The notes beneath the pieces were generated by a model, which worked only from the letters and a program-made list of their open reading frames with translations, had not been told where the DNA came from and did no database searches. A stretch of DNA of 64,000 nt from a virus. How positions within the stretch are numbered: the first letter of the stretch is position 1; each line of letters starts with the position of its first letter. A program made the translations under genes and the position numbers. The DNA is taken from IMG/VR virus record IMGVR_UViG_3300045988_066341. The stretch is one strand, 5' to 3'. This document shows, piece by piece, positions 19,034-52,112 of the stretch.

Positions 19034-21058
19034 TTAATCTTGTTCTTTAACGGCGATGCTATACTTGCCTGAAGCGTAACACCAGATATTTATCTCGAAA
19101 GGCTTGTTAGCCGTAGTGGTTATAGAAGTTCCGCTCATGCTGACATAATCCCCGGAATTAGGTATCGCTTGGGTGAAAGCCGCTGAGGGTACACACCTGA
19201 TCATCAGCTCCTCCCCTACCTGCATCCCTGACTGCACGGATAGGGTGGTAGCGGCTGATAACGTAGCCGTGATACTTCTCTTGCTAATAGGCAGGTTAGC
19301 TAATGTCGTGACCGTATTAACTCCTATAAGCCTGTTCATGGTCTTCTTGTCAGCCGCCGCCATCAACCCGTTAGTAGACTCGTTGGCTACGGCGTATGTC
19401 GTGTTAGGAGGTGTAGCCCAAGTGCCATCTCCACGCATGAAACTGGATGTGCTTCCATTAAGCTGTCTCAATAAGCCGTTAGCTGTAGTAGAGGCTAATC
19501 CGTATGTGGTATTGGTAGGCACTACCCACGTTCCATCACCACGAAGAAAAGATGCCTGCTTGCCAGCGGCTGGGGCCGGTACCAATCCCGCAGCACCAGC
19601 CGCCGAGGCCGTAGCCGCCTTCATATTGGCGTAGGTAGTATTCGTATCCTTATAATAGGGGATACCACCGACAATAGGACAAGCCGTATATCCAGAGGCG
19701 TTTGTCACGGTACTGCCGTTCTTGACCAATCCTGTGGACCCGTTAGCTCCTACAACACCATACGTTGTATTAGTATCCGTCCAAGGCACGTTAACATACA
19801 TCTTACCACTACTATCCAGCTCTACCGGATAATTCTTACCGTTCTCAGTATATCCGATCATCACCAATCCTAATGTCGTGGTATTGGCCTTGGCGTATGT
19901 GGTATTTGTCGGAACCACCCACGTACCATCGCCACGGAGGAAAGAGGTTTGCTTGCCGGCAGTCGGAGCGGGTACCAATCCCGCCGATCCTGCGGCTGAG
20001 GACGTCGCTCCACCCATGTTGCTATATGTGGTATTAGGAGGGGTTTGCCATGTCCCGTCACCACGAAGATACTTGGCTTGCGCTCCGGCGGCAGGTGCGG
20101 GGACCAAACCTGCCTTTCCCGCCGCTGAGGCAGAAGCGGCTCCCATATTGGTGTATGTCGTGTTGGTATCCGTCCACGGAACATTCACATACATCTTACC
20201 ATTTCCGTCAAGAGCTACCGGATAATTCTTCCCATTAGCTGAGTACCCGATCTTAACAAGACCCAGATTATCGCTCGTGGCCTGTGAGTATGTAGTGTTA
20301 TTGTCAGTCCAAGGGACATTGACGTACATCTTGCCATTAGCCAAGAGCACAGCGTAGTTCTTTCCATTAGAAGCATAGCCGATCTTAACCAATCCTAAGG
20401 TGTCGGCCGTGGCTTCATTATACGTTGTGTTATTATCCGTCCATGGAACGTTGACGTAAGCGTTGCCGAACGAATCCAGTTGCACCTTATAGTTCTTCCC
20501 GGAAGTCGTATATCCCACCTTAATACCGCCAAGAACGGTAGCGGAGGACGTGGGAGGTGTGAAGGTACTTGGTTTGCCCGTAACCCCTGACCAAGGCACG
20601 GAGGAAGCCTGACTGGCCGTGTAAGGCTCATACCCATCCTCACTGTTTAATTTAGACTCGTCTTTTATCAGATACATCTTACCTGTAGACGTGACCTTTA
20701 CCGTATCACCACTTTGAGCCGTAGCGGTGGTAAGGGCGAATCTAGCCGTATCATTAGCTACCACGACCAATCTCTCCAAAGCCGCCTTAGGTAACCTATC
20801 TATGCTGATGGTTCCGGACGCGATCTTAGAGGCATCAAAATTGGCCAATGTCGTGGAGATAGTTACGTTGTCTCCGAAGTCCGATGAGACACTACCGGTA
20901 ACAGCCCCGGACAGCGCTATGGTCCTAGCCGCCTGTAATTTCGTGGCGGTAGGGGCATTATCCGTCTTAAGAGCATATTTGGTAAGATCAATATCATTAG
21001 CCTTATCCAAAAGCTGCTCTATCTGCTTACCATTGTATTTACCTTGAAAATCTTCCAT
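19034..21058 (-). CDS. tail fibre protein, 674 aa
   Basis: Repeated AGLVPAP..G..FLRGDGTW and GKNY.V.LD..GKMYVNVPWTD.NTTY modules. N-terminus MEDFQGKYNGKQI..LDK is shared with 43282-44232. Confidence 0.75.
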   Translation of the reverse strand: MEDFQGKYNGKQIEQLLDKANDIDLTKYALKTDNAPTATKLQAARTIALSGAVTGSVSSDFGDNVTISTTLANFDASKIASGTISIDRLPKAALERLVVVANDTARFALTTATAQSGDTVKVTSTGKMYLIKDESKLNSEDGYEPYTASQASSVPWSGVTGKPSTFTPPTSSATVLGGIKVGYTTSGKNYKVQLDSFGNAYVNVPWTDNNTTYNEATADTLGLVKIGYASNGKNYAVLLANGKMYVNVPWTDNNTTYSQATSDNLGLVKIGYSANGKNYPVALDGNGKMYVNVPWTDTNTTYTNMGAASASAAGKAGLVPAPAAGAQAKYLRGDGTWQTPPNTTYSNMGGATSSAAGSAGLVPAPTAGKQTSFLRGDGTWVVPTNTTYAKANTTTLGLVMIGYTENGKNYPVELDSSGKMYVNVPWTDTNTTYGVVGANGSTGLVKNGSTVTNASGYTACPIVGGIPYYKDTNTTYANMKAATASAAGAAGLVPAPAAGKQASFLRGDGTWVVPTNTTYGLASTTANGLLRQLNGSTSSFMRGDGTWATPPNTTYAVANESTNGLMAAADKKTMNRLIGVNTVTTLANLPISKRSITATLSAATTLSVQSGMQVGEELMIRCVPSAAFTQAIPNSGDYVSMSGTSITTTANKPFEINIWCYASGKYSIAVKEQD
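19391..20536 (-). repeat. intragenic repeats of the fibre (4 x YVNVPWTDxNTTY units, 3-4 x GLVPAP..LRGDGTW units)
   Basis: Seen in the translation and as recurring DNA blocks (for example 19520-19620, 19917-20010, 20047-20140). Confidence 0.8.
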
Positions 21059-40694: not shown

Positions 40695-43001
40695 TTAATT
40701 TCGAGTTCTACTCATACCTTTTATGTTAAGACTTAACCCCGGTATCATATTAAGCACCAGCTGCCTTTTTGCCTGTTCTCTACGCATACGCTCAGCTTCC
40801 GCTACCTGTGCCTCTGATTGGGGATCGTTCTTGATGTTGTTAGCGATATCCTCTATAGCTTTCTTGTTGGCGCCTGATTGAGCTAGCATCTTATATAACA
40901 GGTCTTGACCTTCCTTCTCCCACCAGCTATCCACGGCAGGATGGGAAGCCAAAGAAGGGCCGGCGGGGGCTACCGTCTCAGGCACGGGCTGATGACCTCC
41001 GTCTCCCGTACCAGAATCCCGCTGCCCGAACTCGTATCTCATTGGCTCGTTCTCCGGGACACCGTATCTGTTGGAGAACATATCGGCGAACTCAAACCGC
41101 TTCTCGTTTCTTAATGTCGATCCAAGGGGTCTTCCGTATCCTTGATTCCATGCTACGGTAGCGTCCTTATAATTCGTGGCGTTATCAAAATCAGCTTTCG
41201 AATACATATAGTAATTATATATATTGCCTTGAGCGTCCTTATCAAAGAACTTGCCTTGGTTCATGTAGTTCCAACCTAGCCCCGGTACACGACCTTGATA
41301 CTCATCCACAAGATAATCCAGTTGTTGGGTCAATGTCGGTTTCTTACCATACCTGCGCTGTAGCTCCTTCTTCCTCGGTCCAAGCCATTGTTGGATGCCA
41401 AAATCACCGGCGGCTCCTAGGGCTTCGGTGTCCCCTCCGGACTCGGCGGCGATGTTCGACAGGATACCGATAGCTTGCGTTTGTGGTATTCCCTTCTTGT
41501 CGGTCAGATAATCCCATATCTCGTCATATACAGCCATCTTACTATCCTCTGATCTACGAGGATCAATTACATACTTGCCAGAACCATAAGCCCTCCCTGT
41601 ATTTACCGAACCTCCTCTATCCTTTTTATCAATACTACCATCTATCTTAAATACATCCCCATTCAAAAGAAACTGGACAGCGGGATTGAAATCATATACA
41701 TCCCTATATCTGTATCCGCCCATATCCTTGTCACGATATATCGTATAATCACCAAGTACACTATGAGGACCCGTCTCGTTCTTATCAAGTCTACGATCCC
41801 TATAATTATACTCATTCACGACACCATACCCCTTATCATAAAGAGACCTCAACCCTTTTATATTCATCTCGTCCGCTGATATGGCACCCTCTCTTACCCT
41901 TTTCAGATCCTTATATTCCCTCTGAATCCTCTCATACTCCTCTGGATCGGCATCACTTAAAGCTTTTATAAGTCCTTCATTGTATTCCTTAGTTTCCTTA
42001 TCAAACAGACTCCTATTCACATCAATCCTATTCCTTACGATAGACGAATCAGGTATCATCCTATTAGATAATTCCTTTCGTATACTATACGTACCATCAC
42101 CATTATCTATCAATACAGACTCATCGTAAGGGAGTTTATTATATTTAGCCCAAGCCTCATCACTAGTTCTTGTGCCTAAATCATCATTATCACTATCGCT
42201 ATATAACTTGTTATTAAAATCACCAGATATATATTTCCCGAACATCTTCATAAAATGAACAGGATACTCATACCATTCCGGATTCTTCCCCATAGGATCT
42301 ATTGATGAATACGCAGCTTTATTTATGCGAGTAGGGCCATCAGTATACCTTGAATTAGCGATATCATATATTATTGACAAAACCGGGTGAGCAGAAGCTA
42401 CGTAATTATCCAATACCCTGCTCCCGAATCTAGGTCTATCAAGAACAGACTCTCTTGTTTCTCCTCCATCTTGCTTCCTCTCAATTTTTTCTCCCCATAG
42501 CCCATATTTCTTCCTAGGCCATATGCCGTCTATGGCATCCACATAACCAACGGGATGCTCCCCTTCCAGACGCCGGTCCCGTCGCTCGTCCGCTGGGTAC
42601 AGGGCGTTGGCCAACGGCTGCGTGATATGACCCAACCCCTTATCCTTGGAACTCGACATAGCATCCACCACAGTCCGATATACAGGTCTTAATTTCTCAG
42701 GTAAATATAGCCCCGCCTCATCAACCAACTCACCGATCTTCTTATTTATACCCCTGATACTGAAATTATAATTACCCATGCCATTATTCAACGGGGACAA
42801 CGCACCTCTTATCCCATTCATGCCTTTAACTGCGGCTCCTCCGCTAAGGATATCAAACTCCGGGGACACGTTTCTCAAAGGACTATCATCCATACCCCTG
42901 AAATACATAGGACGCTCGCCTCTTACGACACGATCAAGATCCTCCTTATATAAATCCTTTATCCATGAAGGAATTTCCTCTGGTTTATCTTTCTTAGCCA
43001 T
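40695..43001 (-). CDS. virion-associated protein with a phage tail-lysozyme (peptidoglycan hydrolase) domain, 768 aa
   Basis: QAIGILSNIAAESGGDTEALGAAGDFGIQQWLGPRKKEL (about nt 41080-41500) matches the GILGNI..ESG...G.GI.QW..R signature. Confidence 0.75.
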   Translation of the reverse strand: MAKKDKPEEIPSWIKDLYKEDLDRVVRGERPMYFRGMDDSPLRNVSPEFDILSGGAAVKGMNGIRGALSPLNNGMGNYNFSIRGINKKIGELVDEAGLYLPEKLRPVYRTVVDAMSSSKDKGLGHITQPLANALYPADERRDRRLEGEHPVGYVDAIDGIWPRKKYGLWGEKIERKQDGGETRESVLDRPRFGSRVLDNYVASAHPVLSIIYDIANSRYTDGPTRINKAAYSSIDPMGKNPEWYEYPVHFMKMFGKYISGDFNNKLYSDSDNDDLGTRTSDEAWAKYNKLPYDESVLIDNGDGTYSIRKELSNRMIPDSSIVRNRIDVNRSLFDKETKEYNEGLIKALSDADPEEYERIQREYKDLKRVREGAISADEMNIKGLRSLYDKGYGVVNEYNYRDRRLDKNETGPHSVLGDYTIYRDKDMGGYRYRDVYDFNPAVQFLLNGDVFKIDGSIDKKDRGGSVNTGRAYGSGKYVIDPRRSEDSKMAVYDEIWDYLTDKKGIPQTQAIGILSNIAAESGGDTEALGAAGDFGIQQWLGPRKKELQRRYGKKPTLTQQLDYLVDEYQGRVPGLGWNYMNQGKFFDKDAQGNIYNYYMYSKADFDNATNYKDATVAWNQGYGRPLGSTLRNEKRFEFADMFSNRYGVPENEPMRYEFGQRDSGTGDGGHQPVPETVAPAGPSLASHPAVDSWWEKEGQDLLYKMLAQSGANKKAIEDIANNIKNDPQSEAQVAEAERMRREQAKRQLVLNMIPGLSLNIKGMSRTRN

Positions 43002-43092: not shown

Positions 43093-43269
43093 TCAATGCA
43101 TATGATAAGCCGCTAAGGCTTTCTTAGCCGAATCCCTCGACTTGTACTTGGCCGGCCATAATTTACCGGTCTTGTTGCTAACCACTCGCCAATTACTCCC
43201 TACTTTCTTAATGCATCCTGACTTCGGGCATTCGCCCTTCTTCTTACCGCTAGCTTTTCCTGTTGCCAT
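43093..43269 (-). CDS. small basic protein, 58 aa
   Basis: Hand translation MATGKASGKKKGECPKSGCIKKVGSNWRVVSNKTGKLWPAKYKSRDSAKKALAAYHMH*; below the ORF-track size cut-off. Confidence 0.5.
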   Translation of the reverse strand: MATGKASGKKKGECPKSGCIKKVGSNWRVVSNKTGKLWPAKYKSRDSAKKALAAYHMH

Positions 43270-43281
43270 AACATCAAATAT

Positions 43282-44232
43282 TTAAATTACAATAGTACTT
43301 ACCTCATAAGTATCATAATTAATTTTTATCTTACTCATTTTTGAAGAATTCGGATCAAAAAATACCAAATAAGCGGCATCATAAATATAACTTGCTATGA
43401 TATATGAATTAAAAGCCGCCGTAAAACCGGAGCCAGATATCACTCGTGAAAGATACATATGATAATTATTTAGAATATAACTTTTTATATCATCATATTT
43501 TGATTTGGTTATAGATGATACTATATCAATAGTGCCAGGTTCTAATAGATAACTTGATATGTCTATACCTCTTATATCATGATATAACCCATTATCCATC
43601 AATGCTTTATTCCCAGTCCCTTTCAACTTAAGATGAAGCTGATTATCAAAATTTATATTATCTTCTGTATTCCCAAAAGACCTTACAATAACTATCTCAG
43701 TGTTATCTGATGATGCTATATTTAAAGAAGAATTAATATATTCAACATTCAAATTAGGGTAAACAGATATAGATATATCTGAAAATCCCATATTAAGGGA
43801 ATTATTTGAAGCGCTGATATAAATAGTGATACAATCATTCCTTTGATCATTAAAAACCATCAAATCATTAATATTCACGCCACCTAACGCTTCTACAAAA
43901 GAATTGTTAGGTCTTATCATCCTGACATTGGACGTAGAACTACCATCAAACAACGACTTTATAGTATTATATTGAGATTGAGGCAAAGTAGTAGATTGAT
44001 CTCCTACAAGCTGTAAGATGATAGCTAAAAAAGCATCCTCATCATCACTTTTAGCTACTGCGTCCTTTCACGTACCATCACCACAAAGGAACCTACCCTC
44101 ATCCCCCTTAGCAGGAGCCGGCACCAATCCCGCAGCGCCAGCCCCGGACGCCGTGGCGCCAACCATATCCTTGACCTTATCAAGTCTACTGTCTATTTGA
44201 TTACCATCGTACTTACCAATAAAATCCTCCAT
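43282..44232 (-). CDS. second tail-fibre paralogue (316 codons) interrupted by an in-frame TGA at 44068-44070
   Basis: MEDFIGKYDGNQI..LDK.. AGLVPAPAKGDEGRFLCGDGT-TGA-KDAV.. continues in the same frame into track ORF 43282-43986. Confidence 0.65.
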
Positions 44233-44267
44233 ATCGTTTTAATATACAAGGGAGAGGCGGCAAAATA

Positions 44268-44276
44268 CCCCCCCCC
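44268..44276. repeat. C9 homopolymer (G9 on the coding strand)
   Basis: 14 nt after the stop at 44291 and 35 nt before ATG 44232. Confidence 0.9.
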
Positions 44277-44290
44277 TATATGTTAATAAA

Positions 44291-47200
44291 TCAATAAACT
44301 TTCTCCTCATTGCTAAACCAACGAACTATCATCTTGAACCGACTCTCAATGTCATTCACGAACCTAGCCAAGAACCAATCGCCACGAAGACGATCACGCC
44401 ACCTCCGGTGATAATCGACGGCCCTAGGGTCGATCTTCCGGTCAATATCATTCACGTCCTTGATCCATACCGGGAGGTTATTAGTATCGTCTTTGACCTC
44501 GTTAAAATAGTCATTTATATTTATCTTCTGATCAACCTCCGTCACCAGTATCTCACGGCTATCGTCATTGGTTACAGGATACCTTAACCGCTGGCTCATA
44601 TCGTTCTTGTCGGCGATAACCATCCGAAGTTCACCGCTGTTGTTCGTATCATTATAAAACCATGCCTTATTGAATCCAGTAGTCCTAAGAATTTGGTAAT
44701 TAACCTCATCCTGATATCTTCTGGCATCCATCCGATATTGGTAGTTGGTGAGGATCTTATTCACGTACTGCTCACGTACCGGAACCTCTATAACAAACGG
44801 ATATAGCTTACCATAAAATACTTGATACGATTGGTTGGTCAATCCATGAGACCATAACCCTATCTCCTGACTTTCACTTGAGTAGTTCTTTCCAGACTGG
44901 AAATAATGCTGGTGCTCGATATAATAATCAGGGGTGTAGGATAAATATGATTTCCACTCACCCTTCAGGCAGTTATATCCAACGGTGAACGAGACGTCCG
45001 TGAAATGGCTGGCGTCCTGTAGCTCCACCGCCTGCCCGTTCCTGTAGAACCGGCCGCCACGGAATTGGTACTCGCTCGGATTCCCTACCGGTATATAATC
45101 TTTCTTGGTTATCAGAACCCTCTTAAACCTATTATCCCAACCCATGGACAACCCTATACCAAAAAACTTGTTATCAATATCATAATAAGACAACTCAGCG
45201 TCCGTATCAGCGTTATATATCCGGCTACGGATGATCTTCATCTGAAGATGCTCATTAAACCAGTTTCTAAGCCCCGGTGTGACCTCCGTAAGATTCCTAC
45301 CATTAGAATCTACCTTAAACACCTGACCACGCCTTAAATCGACCCAAAAATGCCCAAACTCGCAACTGATCATATCCCGGCTCTGGGTCCCGGAATATCC
45401 TAACGTCGTATTATTATACTCGATACCACGAGAGGCGAAAAGACCACCTGTCCCTAGCTCGCTACTCTCCGGGGATATTCTCTCCGCCAACACGTCTATG
45501 GCATTGTACAACCCTACCTGATTCTCAAAACGAGCCAGTATCTGATCCGACTCTATCCCTTTCATGCTTATAAGTTTCCCGAAAGATGTCTTGAACTCAT
45601 GGTAATCCATAGGCTTGTACGACAGCCAAGGATCGGTCATGCCGTTCTCCGACACGTCGGCGGTGCTCCATATGACGCCGTTGGGTCTTTGGTAAGCGCA
45701 GTCCCAAAAATTGCTATCATACGTCTCTGGTAATGACCTGCCACCTAACGTAAATCGATTCTTATACACAGGACTTATCTTAAACACATTATCCCTTGAT
45801 ATAGGGACATTACGCTCCTGAGTCCATGATATATAATCCCCCACCTCCGGATAGAACCCCTCGTAAGGCTCAGGTCCGGCTATACGGAAATTGCAATTGA
45901 TCTCAGACTCCACAAGAAACTGAGGTATGCCATAGAAGTATAGGAAGAAACGACCGCTAAGATACATATCTCCGGTCTTGCAAACCATCTCATAAGCGCT
46001 CTTCCGGCTAGGGAAAGAGTATAGCGATCCGGTATCCGTATCGGTCTTATTAAGATAATCCTCCCCGGTGTCGTAATTAACAAAATAACGGGGATACCCG
46101 ATGTTCCGATAATCATAATAAGGGAATGGTATCATGTCCCCCTGACCAAACTGAGTCAAGTAAAACATAGGCATCTTCCTCTTAAGTGAGAATCTTGATA
46201 TAAATACATCACCTCCAAAAACAGGTTTACGCTTATCCTTATCCATCAACCCGCAACCACCTAACGATACCCACCTGATATCCTCTATCTGTCCGTATTG
46301 AGCCGGAGAATATTTCTTTATCCTCATATAGGGGCAGGATACGAAAGATTCACGTGTCATAAAATGAGGCGTCATACCAGCCACCTCATCGTTACGAATA
46401 TTACACTCATCCTGAATACGGCTGGTATCGTAACTTGAAACCAACTCCGGATATTCAAGCATATATTTATCCATACCAAATGACATGAATAACGAGTGCT
46501 CACGATCGAGGTTGTTTATGATAATAGGCTTACCGCCTACGGTCTCCCCTTGCGAAGAGATATCTGTTACCGGATATAACCCGCTCTTGATATATTTAGC
46601 CGTTGACAATCCACGTAACTCTGACTCCCCTATTTTTTGGTAAAATAAATTATAATGAGCGACAGAAGTATAATAATAAGCATAGTTCCGTCTAGGTCCC
46701 CTATCTATCAATGCCGTTAACCACTGATACCTGTACTTGCCTATATCCACCACGGACTGGGCTGTGGCCTTGGCGATACCCGTAGCCAGACGGATAGCCG
46801 TCAGCGCTATGCCGACAGGGTTGGCTAAAAAGAACACGCCTCCACCGACATATTGCTGTGAAGCCGACTGATATGTATACTCAGCTATAGCGGATATTAA
46901 ATTAGCCATAGCCTCCACCGTAGCCAATGATGTTGCCATACTGTAAGCCTTACTCCCTAATATCGTCCATTTAGGGTGATCCTCCACTTCCCTGAATATA
47001 CCGGAGGATTTACCTAATTGATAACCATCAACAAGGCACTCGGTGGGAGCGTCAGGCTTGTTAAAGGCAATATCAGGGCTTAAGAATGAATACCAGATAT
47101 TACCCCTCCTGTTAAACGGATGCGTTATAAATTTCTCACGATTAATATCCTTATAGATATACATATCATCAGACAAATCGTTGTAAGGGTAATTAGGATA

Positions 47201-50200
47201 AAGGTTAGCCGATCCGTCGGGATCATCGTACTTAAACATATCATAAGCCAGACCAGTTCCGATAACGCTCTTATCCAACGTCCTATCGCCCCTATACAAC
47301 TCATATCCTATTATAGAATCTCTTCTAACCTTATCTATAAGACCGTTCTCTACCGCTATATCCAGAAACTCATTAACGATATCGTCATCAAGCATCACCC
47401 CCATAGGATAAATATAGGAGTCAACTCCATATTGACCGGTCAGTTGAGACGGATTACCCATAAAAGGAGCGACAGAGTTATCCGGGAACTTGTAATGACG
47501 TATAGGTCTCTGACAAAACGTGGTTGACGTATTTGGGTACTCAGCGTTACCCCCATTACCGGTGAAATAAGACTTACCCCCAACTGATTTAGGAGACCCA
47601 TAGTATTTCATCAAAGAATCTATTATGTCCTTCCTCTTTGATCCTCCCGATGATATCCCGATCTTACTTGAATCATACAACTCAAAATTAGCCGGATACT
47701 TATTGGTAGACTCCCAATATCCGAAATCACCGTACTGATATGGTCTGGGAGCGCAGTCAGCGGGTTTATCCCCACATGAGATACATTTCGCCTCATAGGT
47801 AACGAATCTCCTTAATTTCAATTCTTTTGTGAAGAAGAATACGTATTTCACCTCCAGTGGCCGAATGCCAAAACAGAACGGGGCAGGGAAGATGGCGGTG
47901 CCGGCCGTATAGAATCCGGCAAGCTCCTTCATGTCCTGCCTCATGGCGAAACCGGTGAAGAACACGCATACCGCAGGCTCGATGCAAACATATATCTTAT
48001 GGAAAGTAGTCTTGTCATCATTCCAGAACAAGTACTTTGGCATCATAAATATCTTATGATCCACGTAATTCACTATAACACCTTTCTTGGCATCATTAGC
48101 CAAAGGATTAGGAGCCACGGTACCTTCCTTGTCCGAGAAAAACGTTATACGAACCTTATTGTATGATGACGAGTCGCCGATCGGATAATTATAGTTACCC
48201 ATCATCTCTATATACATAATACCGTTATCAGGATCGGATAAACCACTTATGTATTTCTCGTAATCCAACTCCACCCATCTGGCGTATGAGGATACATGTG
48301 GATAGAACTTGAAATAAGTCAAGTTGCTTCTACCGAACCAATTGGTCTTGGCGTCAATATCATTCTGCATAGACACACGACCTTCCCAGTCAGTAGTTAT
48401 ACCGGTATTAAACTTAGAATTATCACCATCGCCAAAAAGACACATGGCGTTCTCGATACCAAACTGACTCTCATATTGGGGGAAATAAGCCTCCATCGTA
48501 TCCATTAACTGATCAAGCATCGTCTCCGTATGCTTCTTTCCTTCCCATCCGGGATATTGATACAAATATGTGCACTTACCCAATGACCTACCCCCTTGGA
48601 ATGTAGGAAGTTGAACATCGTTAATAGTAGGATTCACGTGAGGATCACCTACCGAACACCCATTAGTACATATACCCTCATCATATAACTGCCGGACATT
48701 AGACATATCCTGACACAAGACCAAGGCGGAGGAGTCTATATCAGACGGGAATTTATCCTCATCCTGACCATCCAACCATTCCTGAACCAGATCTATGATA
48801 TTCTTACCTCCACTGGAGTAATTATCGAAATCACACAATACAGAAAACTTCCTTTGAGACTCGGCGTTACTTTGTATTAATGTCGTAGGTTCGGTCTCCA
48901 CGTAATCACTAGCCAGCTTATACGTAAAATCAATCCTAGAATCTACCAAAGAGTTTTTATCCAATATAGTCCTGGTCTCTATTCTCTCGATATTATCACA
49001 TCCACTAGGGAAATCAGGAGCCTTTATACCATCTTGATCTTCCGGCAACGATATAGCCGCACATAACTCATCAGTAATGCCTACATTGGATTCTATAAGA
49101 TCACACAGATTCTCTATATTGTCAGCGATATAATCAATAACATCATCTACCGTAACATCTTCCCCCATCGTGTTGATAACGAATTGGGTCTCTCCTACCG
49201 TGGCATATTCCTGCTCTACATACCTGAGTTGCTTGACATCTAGCTGATTCTTGCATTCTCCTCCAAAATCATCAAATCCCCAAGACGGATCGTTTATAAT
49301 CTTTGCCGTATTCTTAAACTGCCAAAGATGACGGCGGCTGTTCCCGGCGCACTGCGGGTTGTTCTCCAGCACCGAAGCAGCCGACAGGTCGTCAGAGTTA
49401 CCGTCCTCATCAACGATAACCTCCATCTCCTCCCTTGTGGCCGGACGAGGGATAAGCGGGAATCTAGCCGTCCTGTATCCTGTATTGGTAAAGAATCTTA
49501 TACCCAACGGATATACCTCGTCACGCATGAAAGAGGCGTATTTAGAGCAAGCCACACCGTCTTTATACAAATTCTCCGTGGCTATAGATGTCTGCCATTT
49601 AACGAAATGACCCAAGAAGTTAACGACCGGTTGAAGATTCCATTCGTTCTCCACGGTCAAGCCGTATTGAAGAAGACGATTCCCGACAGACGTCATGCCT
49701 CTGGCTGTCTTATATACCGGTATTTCCTTGGATAACTTCTCCATGGTCGTACGCTCGCTATACTGATCCGTAAGGTAATAGATGGTCCTTTCCGTTATCG
49801 GATGTATACCTTCTATGAAATACTCAAGAACCGGGCTTTGCTCACCATTAAACCCAACCGTGTTCTGTATAACACCTATCTTATAATGAGATACCTGCTT
49901 GTCTATATTGGATACAGTAAGGCGGATACCCATATTGGTTGACTTACCCCATAAACCATCACGGATAACCATATCTTGGCGATCGAATAACATGATTGGG
50001 TTGGTCAATGAGCAATATCCGGTCTTCTCTATCCCGAACTCATCGCACAACGCCACGCAGAACTGGTAGGTCCCGGCACGCAAGCTCCCCCCGAACTCCA
50101 CGACCTCGGGCTCCACGCACGGGACCGTCAGCAACGGGAACACCAGCAGCTTCTCGCAGGCCAGCCTACACCTCTCTATTGGCTTGTCATCCCCACATGT

Positions 50201-50809
50201 CTTATACCCATGGTAATGATACCAAAAATCACCATCATCATCCGGATTAAGAGCCTTATCGACCATAACATATCGCTGGGGATTATATCCATCGGTCCAG
50301 TATATCACCTTCCCGCATTTCTCGTCCTTGATCTCTATATCGAAGATCGGATGATGAATGGAGAAATTAAGACAAGGGTCATCAACCCAGTCCTCTATCA
50401 GGATCTCCATCAAATCACATATCTCATCAAAACGACCATCCGACTCCTCAAGCCTCTCGCCAAGGATACGATGGATGTCCTTTCCCGATCCAGCCAATTG
50501 ATCCTCCACGGTCTTGATATAATCCAATGACCGCATGAACGTGATCTTAGACGTATTATCATCCGGATTGGATAGAAAGAAATAAGTGTTATCACCAGCT
50601 ATGTCATTCTTATACCCAATAACCTTATAGCCATCAAATCGCTTACATAAAAGGGTACTAGGCTCGTTCTGGATCTTAAGCTGGCTTCCATCGTCACCCT
50701 CTATGGTAGCGTTCAAGGCGAAACTATATTCAGACGGGGATAGATCCTGTGGATGCTTATCCCTGTTCATCCCGGAGTCGGGAACCGCTATGTTAGAGTT
50801 ATTTTGCAC
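44291..50809 (-). CDS. giant Cys/Trp/Tyr-rich virion-module protein, ~2172 aa, function unknown
   Basis: Uninterrupted ORF. GTG 50809 lies 17 nt after the -7 box (alternative ATG 50770); the track start 50854 lies upstream of the promoter. Confidence 0.8.
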   Translation of the reverse strand: MQNNSNIAVPDSGMNRDKHPQDLSPSEYSFALNATIEGDDGSQLKIQNEPSTLLCKRFDGYKVIGYKNDIAGDNTYFFLSNPDDNTSKITFMRSLDYIKTVEDQLAGSGKDIHRILGERLEESDGRFDEICDLMEILIEDWVDDPCLNFSIHHPIFDIEIKDEKCGKVIYWTDGYNPQRYVMVDKALNPDDDGDFWYHYHGYKTCGDDKPIERCRLACEKLLVFPLLTVPCVEPEVVEFGGSLRAGTYQFCVALCDEFGIEKTGYCSLTNPIMLFDRQDMVIRDGLWGKSTNMGIRLTVSNIDKQVSHYKIGVIQNTVGFNGEQSPVLEYFIEGIHPITERTIYYLTDQYSERTTMEKLSKEIPVYKTARGMTSVGNRLLQYGLTVENEWNLQPVVNFLGHFVKWQTSIATENLYKDGVACSKYASFMRDEVYPLGIRFFTNTGYRTARFPLIPRPATREEMEVIVDEDGNSDDLSAASVLENNPQCAGNSRRHLWQFKNTAKIINDPSWGFDDFGGECKNQLDVKQLRYVEQEYATVGETQFVINTMGEDVTVDDVIDYIADNIENLCDLIESNVGITDELCAAISLPEDQDGIKAPDFPSGCDNIERIETRTILDKNSLVDSRIDFTYKLASDYVETEPTTLIQSNAESQRKFSVLCDFDNYSSGGKNIIDLVQEWLDGQDEDKFPSDIDSSALVLCQDMSNVRQLYDEGICTNGCSVGDPHVNPTINDVQLPTFQGGRSLGKCTYLYQYPGWEGKKHTETMLDQLMDTMEAYFPQYESQFGIENAMCLFGDGDNSKFNTGITTDWEGRVSMQNDIDAKTNWFGRSNLTYFKFYPHVSSYARWVELDYEKYISGLSDPDNGIMYIEMMGNYNYPIGDSSSYNKVRITFFSDKEGTVAPNPLANDAKKGVIVNYVDHKIFMMPKYLFWNDDKTTFHKIYVCIEPAVCVFFTGFAMRQDMKELAGFYTAGTAIFPAPFCFGIRPLEVKYVFFFTKELKLRRFVTYEAKCISCGDKPADCAPRPYQYGDFGYWESTNKYPANFELYDSSKIGISSGGSKRKDIIDSLMKYYGSPKSVGGKSYFTGNGGNAEYPNTSTTFCQRPIRHYKFPDNSVAPFMGNPSQLTGQYGVDSYIYPMGVMLDDDIVNEFLDIAVENGLIDKVRRDSIIGYELYRGDRTLDKSVIGTGLAYDMFKYDDPDGSANLYPNYPYNDLSDDMYIYKDINREKFITHPFNRRGNIWYSFLSPDIAFNKPDAPTECLVDGYQLGKSSGIFREVEDHPKWTILGSKAYSMATSLATVEAMANLISAIAEYTYQSASQQYVGGGVFFLANPVGIALTAIRLATGIAKATAQSVVDIGKYRYQWLTALIDRGPRRNYAYYYTSVAHYNLFYQKIGESELRGLSTAKYIKSGLYPVTDISSQGETVGGKPIIINNLDREHSLFMSFGMDKYMLEYPELVSSYDTSRIQDECNIRNDEVAGMTPHFMTRESFVSCPYMRIKKYSPAQYGQIEDIRWVSLGGCGLMDKDKRKPVFGGDVFISRFSLKRKMPMFYLTQFGQGDMIPFPYYDYRNIGYPRYFVNYDTGEDYLNKTDTDTGSLYSFPSRKSAYEMVCKTGDMYLSGRFFLYFYGIPQFLVESEINCNFRIAGPEPYEGFYPEVGDYISWTQERNVPISRDNVFKISPVYKNRFTLGGRSLPETYDSNFWDCAYQRPNGVIWSTADVSENGMTDPWLSYKPMDYHEFKTSFGKLISMKGIESDQILARFENQVGLYNAIDVLAERISPESSELGTGGLFASRGIEYNNTTLGYSGTQSRDMISCEFGHFWVDLRRGQVFKVDSNGRNLTEVTPGLRNWFNEHLQMKIIRSRIYNADTDAELSYYDIDNKFFGIGLSMGWDNRFKRVLITKKDYIPVGNPSEYQFRGGRFYRNGQAVELQDASHFTDVSFTVGYNCLKGEWKSYLSYTPDYYIEHQHYFQSGKNYSSESQEIGLWSHGLTNQSYQVFYGKLYPFVIEVPVREQYVNKILTNYQYRMDARRYQDEVNYQILRTTGFNKAWFYNDTNNSGELRMVIADKNDMSQRLRYPVTNDDSREILVTEVDQKININDYFNEVKDDTNNLPVWIKDVNDIDRKIDPRAVDYHRRWRDRLRGDWFLARFVNDIESRFKMIVRWFSNEEKVY

Positions 50810-50825
50810 GACATTATCTTTTTCG

Positions 50826-50833
50826 CAAATATA
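50826..50833 (-). promoter_or_regulatory. -7 box TATATTTG, class A
   Basis: Followed by CGAAAAAG, as in other class A promoters. Confidence 0.55.
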
Positions 50834-52112
50834 ACAAATCCTGCGGATAATCACTTATGTGGCGGATTCTATTGACATACTCCCATCACTAAAGCAAATG
50901 GGATTCTTGGATACAGACGCAAGAAACCCCGATATTACTATCGCTGGAATTACTCTTGCTCTCCAATTCGGAAATGCCCTTCCGAAGTATATTACGGGCC
51001 GCAAGAACATCACGGTCGTTGATAGACTCGCATTTTGGACAACACCATGTGCGATCTCTCAACGACAAGTTTTTATTAACAAACCCGCATTCACAAGTCT
51101 TTGAGGAAGGATACCATTTGTCAATCTTATGTACTATCACTCCATACTTTGAAGCGATATACGTAAGTTTGTTAATAAAAGAAGAATGACTGAGATCAGA
51201 AACTTTCTTTCCCCACAAACGTTTCATTCCTTCAATGTTTAGATCTTCAATGAAAATATAATCATATCGCTTGCACAATTCATGAGCTAATTTCCATTGA
51301 AAATCAGATCGAAAATCGTTTATTTTACGATACGCTTGTTGAAGTTCAAACAGTCTTCTTTTTCTATTATTGGATCCTTTCTTCGCATTAGAAAACTTTC
51401 TATTTAGTTTTCTAATCTTGTTTTGATATTGCTTGAAGAATAATGGAGACCCAATTTTGTTACCATCACTTTTAGTTAGGTAAGTTTTCAGACCAAAATC
51501 CAATCCTACAGATGCACCATCATATGTCTTTCTGTAAGAGTTTGCAGGATTGTAATCTGTAACTATAATCAAACTAAAACGATAGCAGGTTTCTCTGACT
51601 ATTCTTATTTGTTTAACATTACCTTCATATGCTCTACTGTATGAAAACTTAAAACGTTTCTTTCCTTTGTTGATTGTGAGAATATTACCATTTAGAGTAA
51701 ACCCTCCTTGTTTAAAAACAAAAGAGTTGAAACAATCTGATCTTTTAAACTTAGGTGGTCTCTTTGATTTTCTTTTAAAGAAACGATTATAAGATTCATC
51801 AAGACGTTCAAGTATTTCTTGTGTTGTTTGAGAATGAAGAAGATTTCTTTTAATTCTTTTAGCAAAATGCTTCTTCATTTTACCAATTGAGATATATTTC
51901 CCAAACAGTTTATAGTATCTACGTTGTAGAGCTAAAGCATGATTCCATACAAAACAACATTCACGAAGCATTTTATCAAGATACTTCGTTTTCTTGGATC
52001 TGTATATATTATATTTGTAGGAAATCATTTTTTTATTTGTAATTTTGATTCAAAATTAATCAAACCAATTCATCCACCTTCTAAAGTATGGTGGTTTTGT
52101 TGGTTAAATAAT
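50834..52112 (-). mobile_element. solo-tnpB IS200/IS605-family (IS1341-like) element; ends approximate
   Basis: tnpB plus flanking hairpins (CCACC-N11-GGTGG at 52072-52092, TTGATT-N7-AATCAA). It is wedged between a phage terminator and a phage promoter and is visibly more AT-rich than the flanks. Confidence 0.5.
50889..52028 (-). CDS. tnpB: TnpB (OrfB_IS605) RuvC-like RNA-guided nuclease, 379 aa
   Basis: RuvC-I GLDFGLK, RuvC-II IFIEDLN, zinc finger CECG..CPKC, RuvC-III DRDVLAARNI. Confidence 0.9.
   Translation of the reverse strand: MISYKYNIYRSKKTKYLDKMLRECCFVWNHALALQRRYYKLFGKYISIGKMKKHFAKRIKRNLLHSQTTQEILERLDESYNRFFKRKSKRPPKFKRSDCFNSFVFKQGGFTLNGNILTINKGKKRFKFSYSRAYEGNVKQIRIVRETCYRFSLIIVTDYNPANSYRKTYDGASVGLDFGLKTYLTKSDGNKIGSPLFFKQYQNKIRKLNRKFSNAKKGSNNRKRRLFELQQAYRKINDFRSDFQWKLAHELCKRYDYIFIEDLNIEGMKRLWGKKVSDLSHSSFINKLTYIASKYGVIVHKIDKWYPSSKTCECGFVNKNLSLRDRTWCCPKCESINDRDVLAARNILRKGISELESKSNSSDSNIGVSCVCIQESHLL

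Follow-up and report, generated by a model that had tools for sequence, protein, structure and literature searches.

The stretch of DNA analysed here, hereafter the window, is 64,000 nucleotides (nt) of viral sequence (IMG/VR record IMGVR_UViG_3300045988_066341), and the gene in question is an accessory fibre-like gene on its minus strand that is split by an in-frame TGA. The open reading frame (ORF) begins with MEDFIGKYDGNQI and runs to AGLVPAPAKGDEGRFLCGDGT (..FLCGDGT), where the opal codon stands in place of a tryptophan, and then continues to a TAA (Table 1). The original prediction, made from the letters of the window, had placed the start, the TGA and the open frame beyond it in this way, and all three are confirmed, with 261 sense codons lying between the TGA and the TAA. 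It had also pointed out that TGG to TGA is a single transition and that the frame resumes without an ATG nearby, and both statements hold: the earliest in-frame ATG past the TGA is codon 105, and the program-made ORF list cuts the gene into an ATG-initiated ORF of 54 amino acids (aa) and a 234-aa ORF that uses a TTG at position 43986. The G+C content is about 56% in the 5′ part of the gene and about 24–35% in the 786 nt past the stop; since random frames close quickly at such low G+C, the 261-codon open frame is not a product of chance. The remainder past the stop is 99% identical to intact 316-aa orthologues, and the identity runs across the stop. From the nearest intact allele (L015) the window differs by the stop and by Q218H (window position 43579) alone. 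The TGG at codon 55 is the sole Trp codon of the gene, and either of its possible G-to-A transitions creates a stop.

Table 1. Coordinates of the split gene and of the features associated with it in the window
Feature	Position	Strand	Remarks
5′ fragment of the accessory fibre-like gene	44068..44232	-	54 codons (MEDF...FLCGDGT) from the ATG at 44232, plus the premature TGA (44070-44068)
Premature opal codon in place of Trp55	44068..44070	-	TGG to TGA, G-to-A at gene nt 165
In-frame remainder, AT-rich, putative distal variable domain	43282..44067	-	261 sense codons plus TAA (43284-43282)
First T6 homopolymer	44027..44032	-	36 nt past the TGA; frameshift hot spot in relatives
Second T6 homopolymer	43357..43362	-	T7 alleles truncate at 292 aa in relatives (L025, L052; P0022, P0050)
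G9 tract in the leader	44268..44276	-	36-44 nt upstream of the ATG; G6 to G14 among relatives
Whole cassette (leader plus gene), about 1.0 kb	43285..44290	-	Presence/absence polymorphism; a 16-nt spacer instead in many relatives
Upstream 2187-aa gene	44291..50854	-	Same block; ends in TGA; intact in all relatives; used as control
Downstream 58-aa ORF	43093..43269	-	Conserved with or without the cassette
674-aa paralogue	19034..21058	-	Shares the N-terminal anchor; four ..GDGTW repeats; phrog_4302 matches both proteins

The relatives of this gene encode tryptophan at the interrupted position. When the read-through sequence was searched against proteins, 1892 homologues were obtained, the best 120 of which are mostly intact, with a length of 316 aa and 70–99% identity; a single 90% cluster comprises 1272 sequences. 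All intact proteins that were read carry FLCGDGTWKDAV at the site (Trp, TGG), and W55 is invariant in an alignment of 23 intact homologues (71–98% identity). In IMG/VR, carriers of the gene were collected by a 44-nt pattern that has TGR at codon 55, which retrieved 54 contigs. The comparison of the orthologous codon in related phages that had been proposed at the outset thus gives TGG in 54 of the 54 IMG/VR copies, as it does in every intact orthologue read.

The opal allele itself is found outside the window. ENA, Logan and JGI samples from independent projects contain the exact 54-aa product on at least 23 contigs (29 index blocks), so that the allele is not private; ERZ28579078, ERZ1304122, ERZ27234892 and SRR28082609 are examples of carrier samples. 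One of these contigs, L006 (ERZ28579078 scaffold_60, 154,495 bp), shows 100% identity to the window throughout the gene and the 3 kb upstream of it. The carriers belong to at least four lineages, which lie 1.2–4% apart in the 3 kb upstream of the gene (the window with L006; L004, L010 and L013; L005, L007 and L012; L008 and L011), and the stop-carrying alleles differ from one another within the gene by up to 216 nt. Not counting the stop itself, each uninterrupted stop-carrying allele is 1–2 substitutions away from an intact TGG allele; the figure is five for L009, in which codon 55 is TAG. Some carriers have been damaged a second time. In L008 and L011 the TGA is combined with the loss of one T from the first T6 run (T5), which places a TAG 13 codons past the TGA, and in L012 a gene for an IS605-family TnpB is inserted after about nt 430; in these three, read-through could not yield the protein. 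Decay of the downstream region, named beforehand as an outcome that would speak against read-through, is therefore present in some TGA lineages, while the downstream frame is fully intact in seven of the ten stop-carrying contigs displayed.

This gene has been inactivated in about ten different ways, and the premature TGA is one of them. Among the 42 IMG/VR copies that cover the gene completely (of 54), 10, or about a quarter, are inactivated by something other than TGA. These lesions comprise T5, T7 or T8 in the first T6 run (L039, L067, L058, L066), an additional G at nt 87 or nt 125 (L059, L056), a deletion of nt 513–657 (L021, L027) and T7 in the second T6 run, which yields a protein of 292 aa (L025, L052); one further copy (L045) has an in-frame deletion of 21 nt. 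Within the first T6 run, T5 leads immediately to a TAG and a product of 68 aa (ending in ..DEDAF), T7 to one of 88 aa and T8 to one of 69 aa. A 90% cluster of N-terminal fragments with 57 members adds to this spectrum. It contains the 54-aa product of the W55 stop (exact sequence on 15 contigs), the T5 product P0123 (alone on 210 contigs), the T8 product (14 contigs), a stop at Gln74 (73 aa), other frameshifts of 58, 62 and 78 aa, and a 56-aa product of a deletion, in which codon 44 runs into the end of the 58-aa ORF. With 319 index blocks versus 29, the T5 allele outnumbers the W55 stop about tenfold; as the collections are unequal in size and redundancy, such frequencies are rough. The T5 alleles are up to 225 nt apart and mostly 1–2 nt from an intact allele, and in nine of ten T5 is the sole defect. 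A misreading tRNA-Trp cannot rescue any of the frameshift alleles.

The same loci provide an internal control. No frameshift or premature stop was found in 153 kb of the upstream 2187-aa gene, in 43 kb of the lysozyme-domain gene or in 9 kb of the 58-aa ORF, about 206 kb altogether. Since the neighbouring genes are clean, assembly noise cannot account for the lesions in the split gene. A literature search gave nothing specific on nonsense or frameshift mutations in tail-fibre genes of crAss-like phages. The G tract of the leader is also variable in length in related contigs (G9 in 27, G8 in 16, G10 in five and G11 in four); it could act as a phase-variable tract of the promoter or leader, or the variation could be poly-G assembly noise.

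Many relatives do not have the gene at all. The cassette is missing from about two thirds of the related genomes: the empty junction was found in 116 IMG/VR contigs, all with the same 16-nt spacer GGTGATTATATACCTT, versus 54 carriers. In the only GenBank phage match (L001, MT837925), which is without the gene, 16 nt separate the stop of the 2187-aa gene from the TAAATATTTGATGTT-ATG of the 58-aa ORF. A deletion between short repeats was considered for the origin of the empty site, and the cassette junctions have only TGAGGT and TTTAA in common. The gene is dispensable, as relatives without the cassette are viable. In one contig a third, different sequence occupies the cassette site, following a GGTGATTATATAC motif.

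The assignment of the gene as fibre-like comes from its paralogue, its position and its modular structure. The 674-aa paralogue has the N-terminus MEDFQGKYNGKQI and carries LRGDGTW three times and MRGDGTW once. In BLASTP, residues 1–23 of the split gene align with the N-terminus of the paralogue at 61% identity and residues 22–55 align with its repeats at 65% identity (E 4e-11). Two further statements of the original prediction are borne out in this way, namely that an N-terminal anchor is common to both genes and that the paralogue has tryptophan four times at the position equivalent to the stop. The sole PHROGs family found was phrog_4302, of unknown function, which matches the GDGTW repeat, and nothing relevant on a GDGTW motif was found in the literature. 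The C-terminal modules are exchanged between alleles; in P0054 and P0076 the last ~100 residues are different, and homologues of 476 aa (P0024, P0025, P0028) have an extra internal module that looks as if the domain after GDGTW had been duplicated and the copy had diverged. Modular exchange of the kind that these alignments suggest is typical of receptor-binding proteins. The location of the gene in the crAss ring/cargo (tail) gene block is compatible with a fibre as well. Together, the shared N-terminus and repeat, the gene position and the modular C-terminus suggest that the 316-aa protein serves as a fibre or receptor-binding accessory. In the paralogue, residues 22–71 match, weakly, the C-terminal stalk of the decoration protein Dec of phage L (PDB 6e3c, E 4e-6), which hints at a trimeric beta-helical stalk in the 674-aa protein. 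A supposed second copy of the 316-aa gene beside a TnpB gene in L187 was discarded, the sequence there being unrelated.

The window is read with the standard genetic code. With this code, 91.6% of the window is occupied by 51 ORFs that do not overlap and are at least 80 aa long, among them ORFs of 2428, 2187, 1621 and 1487 aa. Of the 51, 15 (29%) end in TGA, eight of them in the strand block of the split gene, and one of these, the 2187-aa gene, ends 59 nt upstream of the split-gene ATG. Split-ORF scans run for each stop codon found no in-frame TGA in any other coding-strand gene of the 64-kb window, and reading TGA as sense merged other pairs of coding-strand genes no more than reading TAG or TAA as sense. 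Genome-wide recoding of TGA was considered and is ruled out by the ORF coverage, the stop usage and these scans. No tRNA was found by ARAGORN in the whole window. The search for a tRNA with a UCA anticodon, which the original prediction had recommended, was extended to relatives and found none in the ~84 kb scanned of a genome of ~154 kb: the 20-kb stretches round the gene in ten stop-carrying contigs contain tRNA-Met only, and the 10 kb beyond each window end in six relative loci contain only tRNA-Cys(GCA) and tRNA-Met. The tRNA-Cys(GCA) of the relatives lies about 5 kb past the right end of the window (L187 4411-4483, L188 5765-5837, L189 5767-5839), and its anticodon is one substitution away from UCA. 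In some relatives the tRNA-Met is located between the ring-protein and BACON genes (L004/L010 1744-1816; L188 20134-20206), at a place where the window has no counterpart.

The RNA around the stop is likewise unremarkable. The 121 nt surrounding it fold no more stably than shuffled sequences (z = 0.01), and an apparent hairpin that includes the T6 run was rejected as a read-through stimulator, its stability being equal to that of shuffled sequence. A search against Rfam found neither a selenocysteine insertion sequence (SECIS) nor any other element in the gene at E <= 1, and only noise in the leader. Selenocysteine insertion at the UGA was rejected as well, as there is no SECIS, the folding equals that of shuffles and the relatives encode Trp.

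We consider that the window most likely carries an opal knock-out allele, young and recurrent, of an accessory fibre-like gene that is dispensable and prone to mutation, a reading to which we assign a probability of about 80%. The 316-aa gene would consist of ~55 N-terminal residues that copy the anchor and one ..GLVPAP..GDGTW repeat of the 674-aa protein, followed by an AT-rich distal domain that swaps modules. A single G-to-A transition would have turned its sole Trp codon into TGA, so that translation would stop after 54 residues. Essentially no full-length protein would then be made, and any such product would come from background near-cognate read-through by the host tRNA-Trp. The gene is optional, and its knock-out alleles look recurrent, as they occur on many backgrounds and each is within 1–2 substitutions of an intact one; a lesion could also spread by recombination across the first 260 nt, which are nearly invariant. 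The allele appears to be non-functional, and its loss is presumably neutral or conditionally favoured. Trace read-through is possible, but nothing suggests selection for it, because the stop is rare, not conserved, interchangeable with TAG, outnumbered by frameshifts and sometimes accompanied by further damage. Of the options that the original prediction had listed, a nonsense mutation or pseudogene is thus the one that is supported. What did not stand is its description as fresh in the sense of private, since at least four backgrounds carry it; moreover, the gene is absent from most relatives and is subject to about ten kinds of inactivating lesion, of which the stop is but one.

Several observations weigh against this reading. 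The fibre function is putative: the 316-aa protein has no Pfam match above threshold and no PDB sequence match, and an AlphaFold2 model built from an alignment of 23 sequences is poor, with a predicted local distance difference test (pLDDT) score of 47. The ratio of nonsynonymous to synonymous polymorphism (pN/pS) among 29 intact alleles is 0.66, a value of little leverage that would fit either weak constraint or a diversifying binding domain. The downstream frame that stays intact in most of the displayed carriers fits low-level use of the full-length protein, though it is also expected of a young allele. That the same codon has been struck on several backgrounds might point to selection of just this change; mutation alone would also favour repeated hits there, as this is the sole Trp codon and both of its G-to-A transitions give stops. 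Finally, the tRNA scan leaves room for a suppressor tRNA(UCA) elsewhere in the genome.

Among the alternatives, reversible switching deserves the most attention, although we regard it as unlikely. The accessory fibre gene would be a contingency locus toggled on and off by the T6 run, perhaps also by the G9 tract, with nonsense at the Trp codon as a rarer off-state; the off-state would be favoured in some hosts or capsule phases and the on-state in others, so that knock-outs keep arising and reverting and do not decay. Such switching would agree with the occurrence of T5, T7 and T8 in one and the same T6 run on backgrounds up to 225 nt apart, each 1–2 nt from intact, with the otherwise intact state of nine of ten T5 alleles, with the spread of the T5 product over 319 index blocks and with the variation of the leader G tract from G6 to G14. 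The ~206 kb of lesion-free neighbouring genes and the proximity of the knock-outs examined to intact alleles, as opposed to old and heavily decayed lineages, agree with it too. However, a run of T6 is short for a classical contingency tract, G-tract lengths are unreliable in short-read assemblies, no reversion was observed, and many of the lesions are irreversible (deletions, the IS insertion and total absence). The same pattern could arise from mutation-selection balance or from recombination through the near-identical N-terminal 260 nt. The associated idea that off-switching tunes adsorption to the phase-variable surfaces of Bacteroidales hosts, with leaky UGA alleles as an intermediate, low-dose state, is just as doubtful. 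A functional role for read-through is less probable still. UGA can be misread by tRNA-Trp, which inserts tryptophan, so that read-through would in principle restore the native residue, as had been correctly noted. The host tRNA-Trp would misread UGA-A at a few per cent, thereby restoring Trp55, and a small dose of full-length fibre would be the object of selection, in the manner of the Qbeta A1 protein. The restoration of the wild-type residue (general knowledge of UGA near-cognate decoding), the frame that stays open in the window and in most TGA carriers and the recurrence of TGA on several backgrounds all suit this idea, but the stop is present in 0 of 54 IMG/VR copies and intact TGG alleles are vastly commoner. 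One lineage has TAG instead, frameshifts that no read-through could rescue are about ten times commoner (319 versus 29 blocks), and lineages exist that combine TGA with T5 or TGA with TnpB. The 54-aa product, a truncated repeat, is an implausible stand-alone protein, and there is no stimulatory RNA element or SECIS past the stop. For deliberate read-through, one of the options first envisaged, there is no support.

Suppressor-dependent expression, another of the initial options, fares worse. A UGA-decoding tRNA would be supplied by the phage or its host late in infection, and the TGA would be an incipient recoded Trp codon. Recoding is not foreign to such phages: among crAss-like phages, stop codons are recoded mainly in groups beta and zeta, which read TGA or TAG as sense in late genes, and suppressor tRNAs may exist without visible recoding (PMC7886860, PMC12386605). 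The ~70 kb of genome that the tRNA scan leaves uncovered would offer space for such a tRNA. Against this, TGA serves as terminator for 15 of 51 ORFs, including eight in the same late-strand block and the gene directly upstream; the standard code holds throughout, with no second in-frame-TGA gene in the 64 kb; and tRNAs are absent from the window, only Met and Cys(GCA) being present in the neighbouring DNA of relatives. In the paper on crAssE-Sib, a phage of the nearest described group, epsilon, neither a suppressor nor recoding is mentioned (PMC11054128). We consider suppressor-dependent expression highly improbable. An assembly or sequencing error at one base, also among the original options, would account for a single-base difference from many intact alleles that are 99% identical. 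The same stop and the same 54-aa product in at least 23 contigs from independent studies, with different assemblers and on different backgrounds, rule it out, and its probability is negligible. Taken over all the data, the knock-out reading is the simplest.

The setting of the gene is that of a crAss-like phage. In its minus-strand block it is accompanied by a CrAss_Ring_1 tail ring protein, a BACON-domain protein, the 2187-aa protein, a Phage_lysozyme2-domain protein and a holin- and amidase-like pair. Related contigs span 147–158 kb, and the nearest annotated genome belongs to crAssE-Sib, a crAss-like phage of the epsilon group (30% identity over a 773-aa protein; PMC11054128). The window is part of a crAss-like phage genome of ~150 kb that is probably related to the epsilon group. 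Within the tail/cargo block, at window position 50889-52028 on the minus strand, lies an IS605-family TnpB gene (OrfB_IS605, a Cas12f1-like TNB domain and a helix-turn-helix domain). IS605-family TnpB genes of 340–407 aa occur elsewhere in relatives, following the lysozyme-domain gene (L004/L013), near tRNA-Cys (L187) and inside the fibre gene (L012), and at least one such element seems to be mobile within the phage lineage. The Phage_lysozyme2-domain neighbour (window 40695-43001, minus strand, 768 aa) is a second hypervariable locus adjoining the cassette; in close relatives its length is 395, 639, 753, 866, 1065, 1198 or 1268 aa, and the longest variants carry LysM and YkuD.

These results bear on annotation and on searches for recoded genes. 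The 54-aa and 234-aa calls at 44232-43282 are one disrupted gene and should be merged and flagged as such; they represent neither two genes nor a case of recoding or read-through. In surveys of recoding, a crAss-like phage with a single TGA at a Trp codon should not be scored as a case of reassignment, and a comparison across the population settles the question quickly. The more interesting result concerns the population: about two thirds of the relatives of this common human-gut phage lack the optional fibre-like gene, and where it is present it is repeatedly knocked out while its neighbours remain clean. This makes it a candidate for a determinant of host range or adsorption on which selection fluctuates.

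The split gene can be compared with several known systems. Recoded crAss-like phages read TGA as Trp or TAG as Gln with the help of phage suppressor tRNAs (PMC7886860, PMC12386605, PMC9523058). The phage order, the late or structural gene block and the TGA at a Trp position are shared with them. Unlike the window, in which a single case occurs, TGA terminates 29% of ORFs and ~84 kb hold no suppressor tRNA, these phages have many in-frame stops, spread over their late genes, and avoid the recoded codon as a terminator. With the coat and A1 proteins of Qbeta the gene has in common a UGA that can be misread by tRNA-Trp and a long open frame after it. The Qbeta stop, however, is fixed, ends a complete coat protein and precedes an essential extension, whereas the stop described here is a rare allele that ends a 54-aa fragment and is followed by downstream damage in some carriers. 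Contingency loci vary by homopolymer slippage, and the host-range switches of Mu and P1 operate by inversion of the G segment and the C segment, respectively. In these systems, as in the putative fibre gene, a surface-recognition protein varies in the population, here with T5–T8 and G6–G14 variants at or before the gene; in contrast to them, the T6 run is short, the lesion of the window is a substitution and there is no invertase. Laboratory lambda PaPa reportedly carries a frameshift in stf, as described by Hendrix and Duda in 1992. As in the lambda case, an optional fibre gene has been lost by a point lesion, the phage is viable, intact and broken alleles coexist in close relatives and the remainder of the ORF can still be read. 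The differences are that the lesion of the window is an opal codon at the sole Trp codon, and that in wild gut populations the gene is broken on several backgrounds, by many types of lesion, up to its outright absence.

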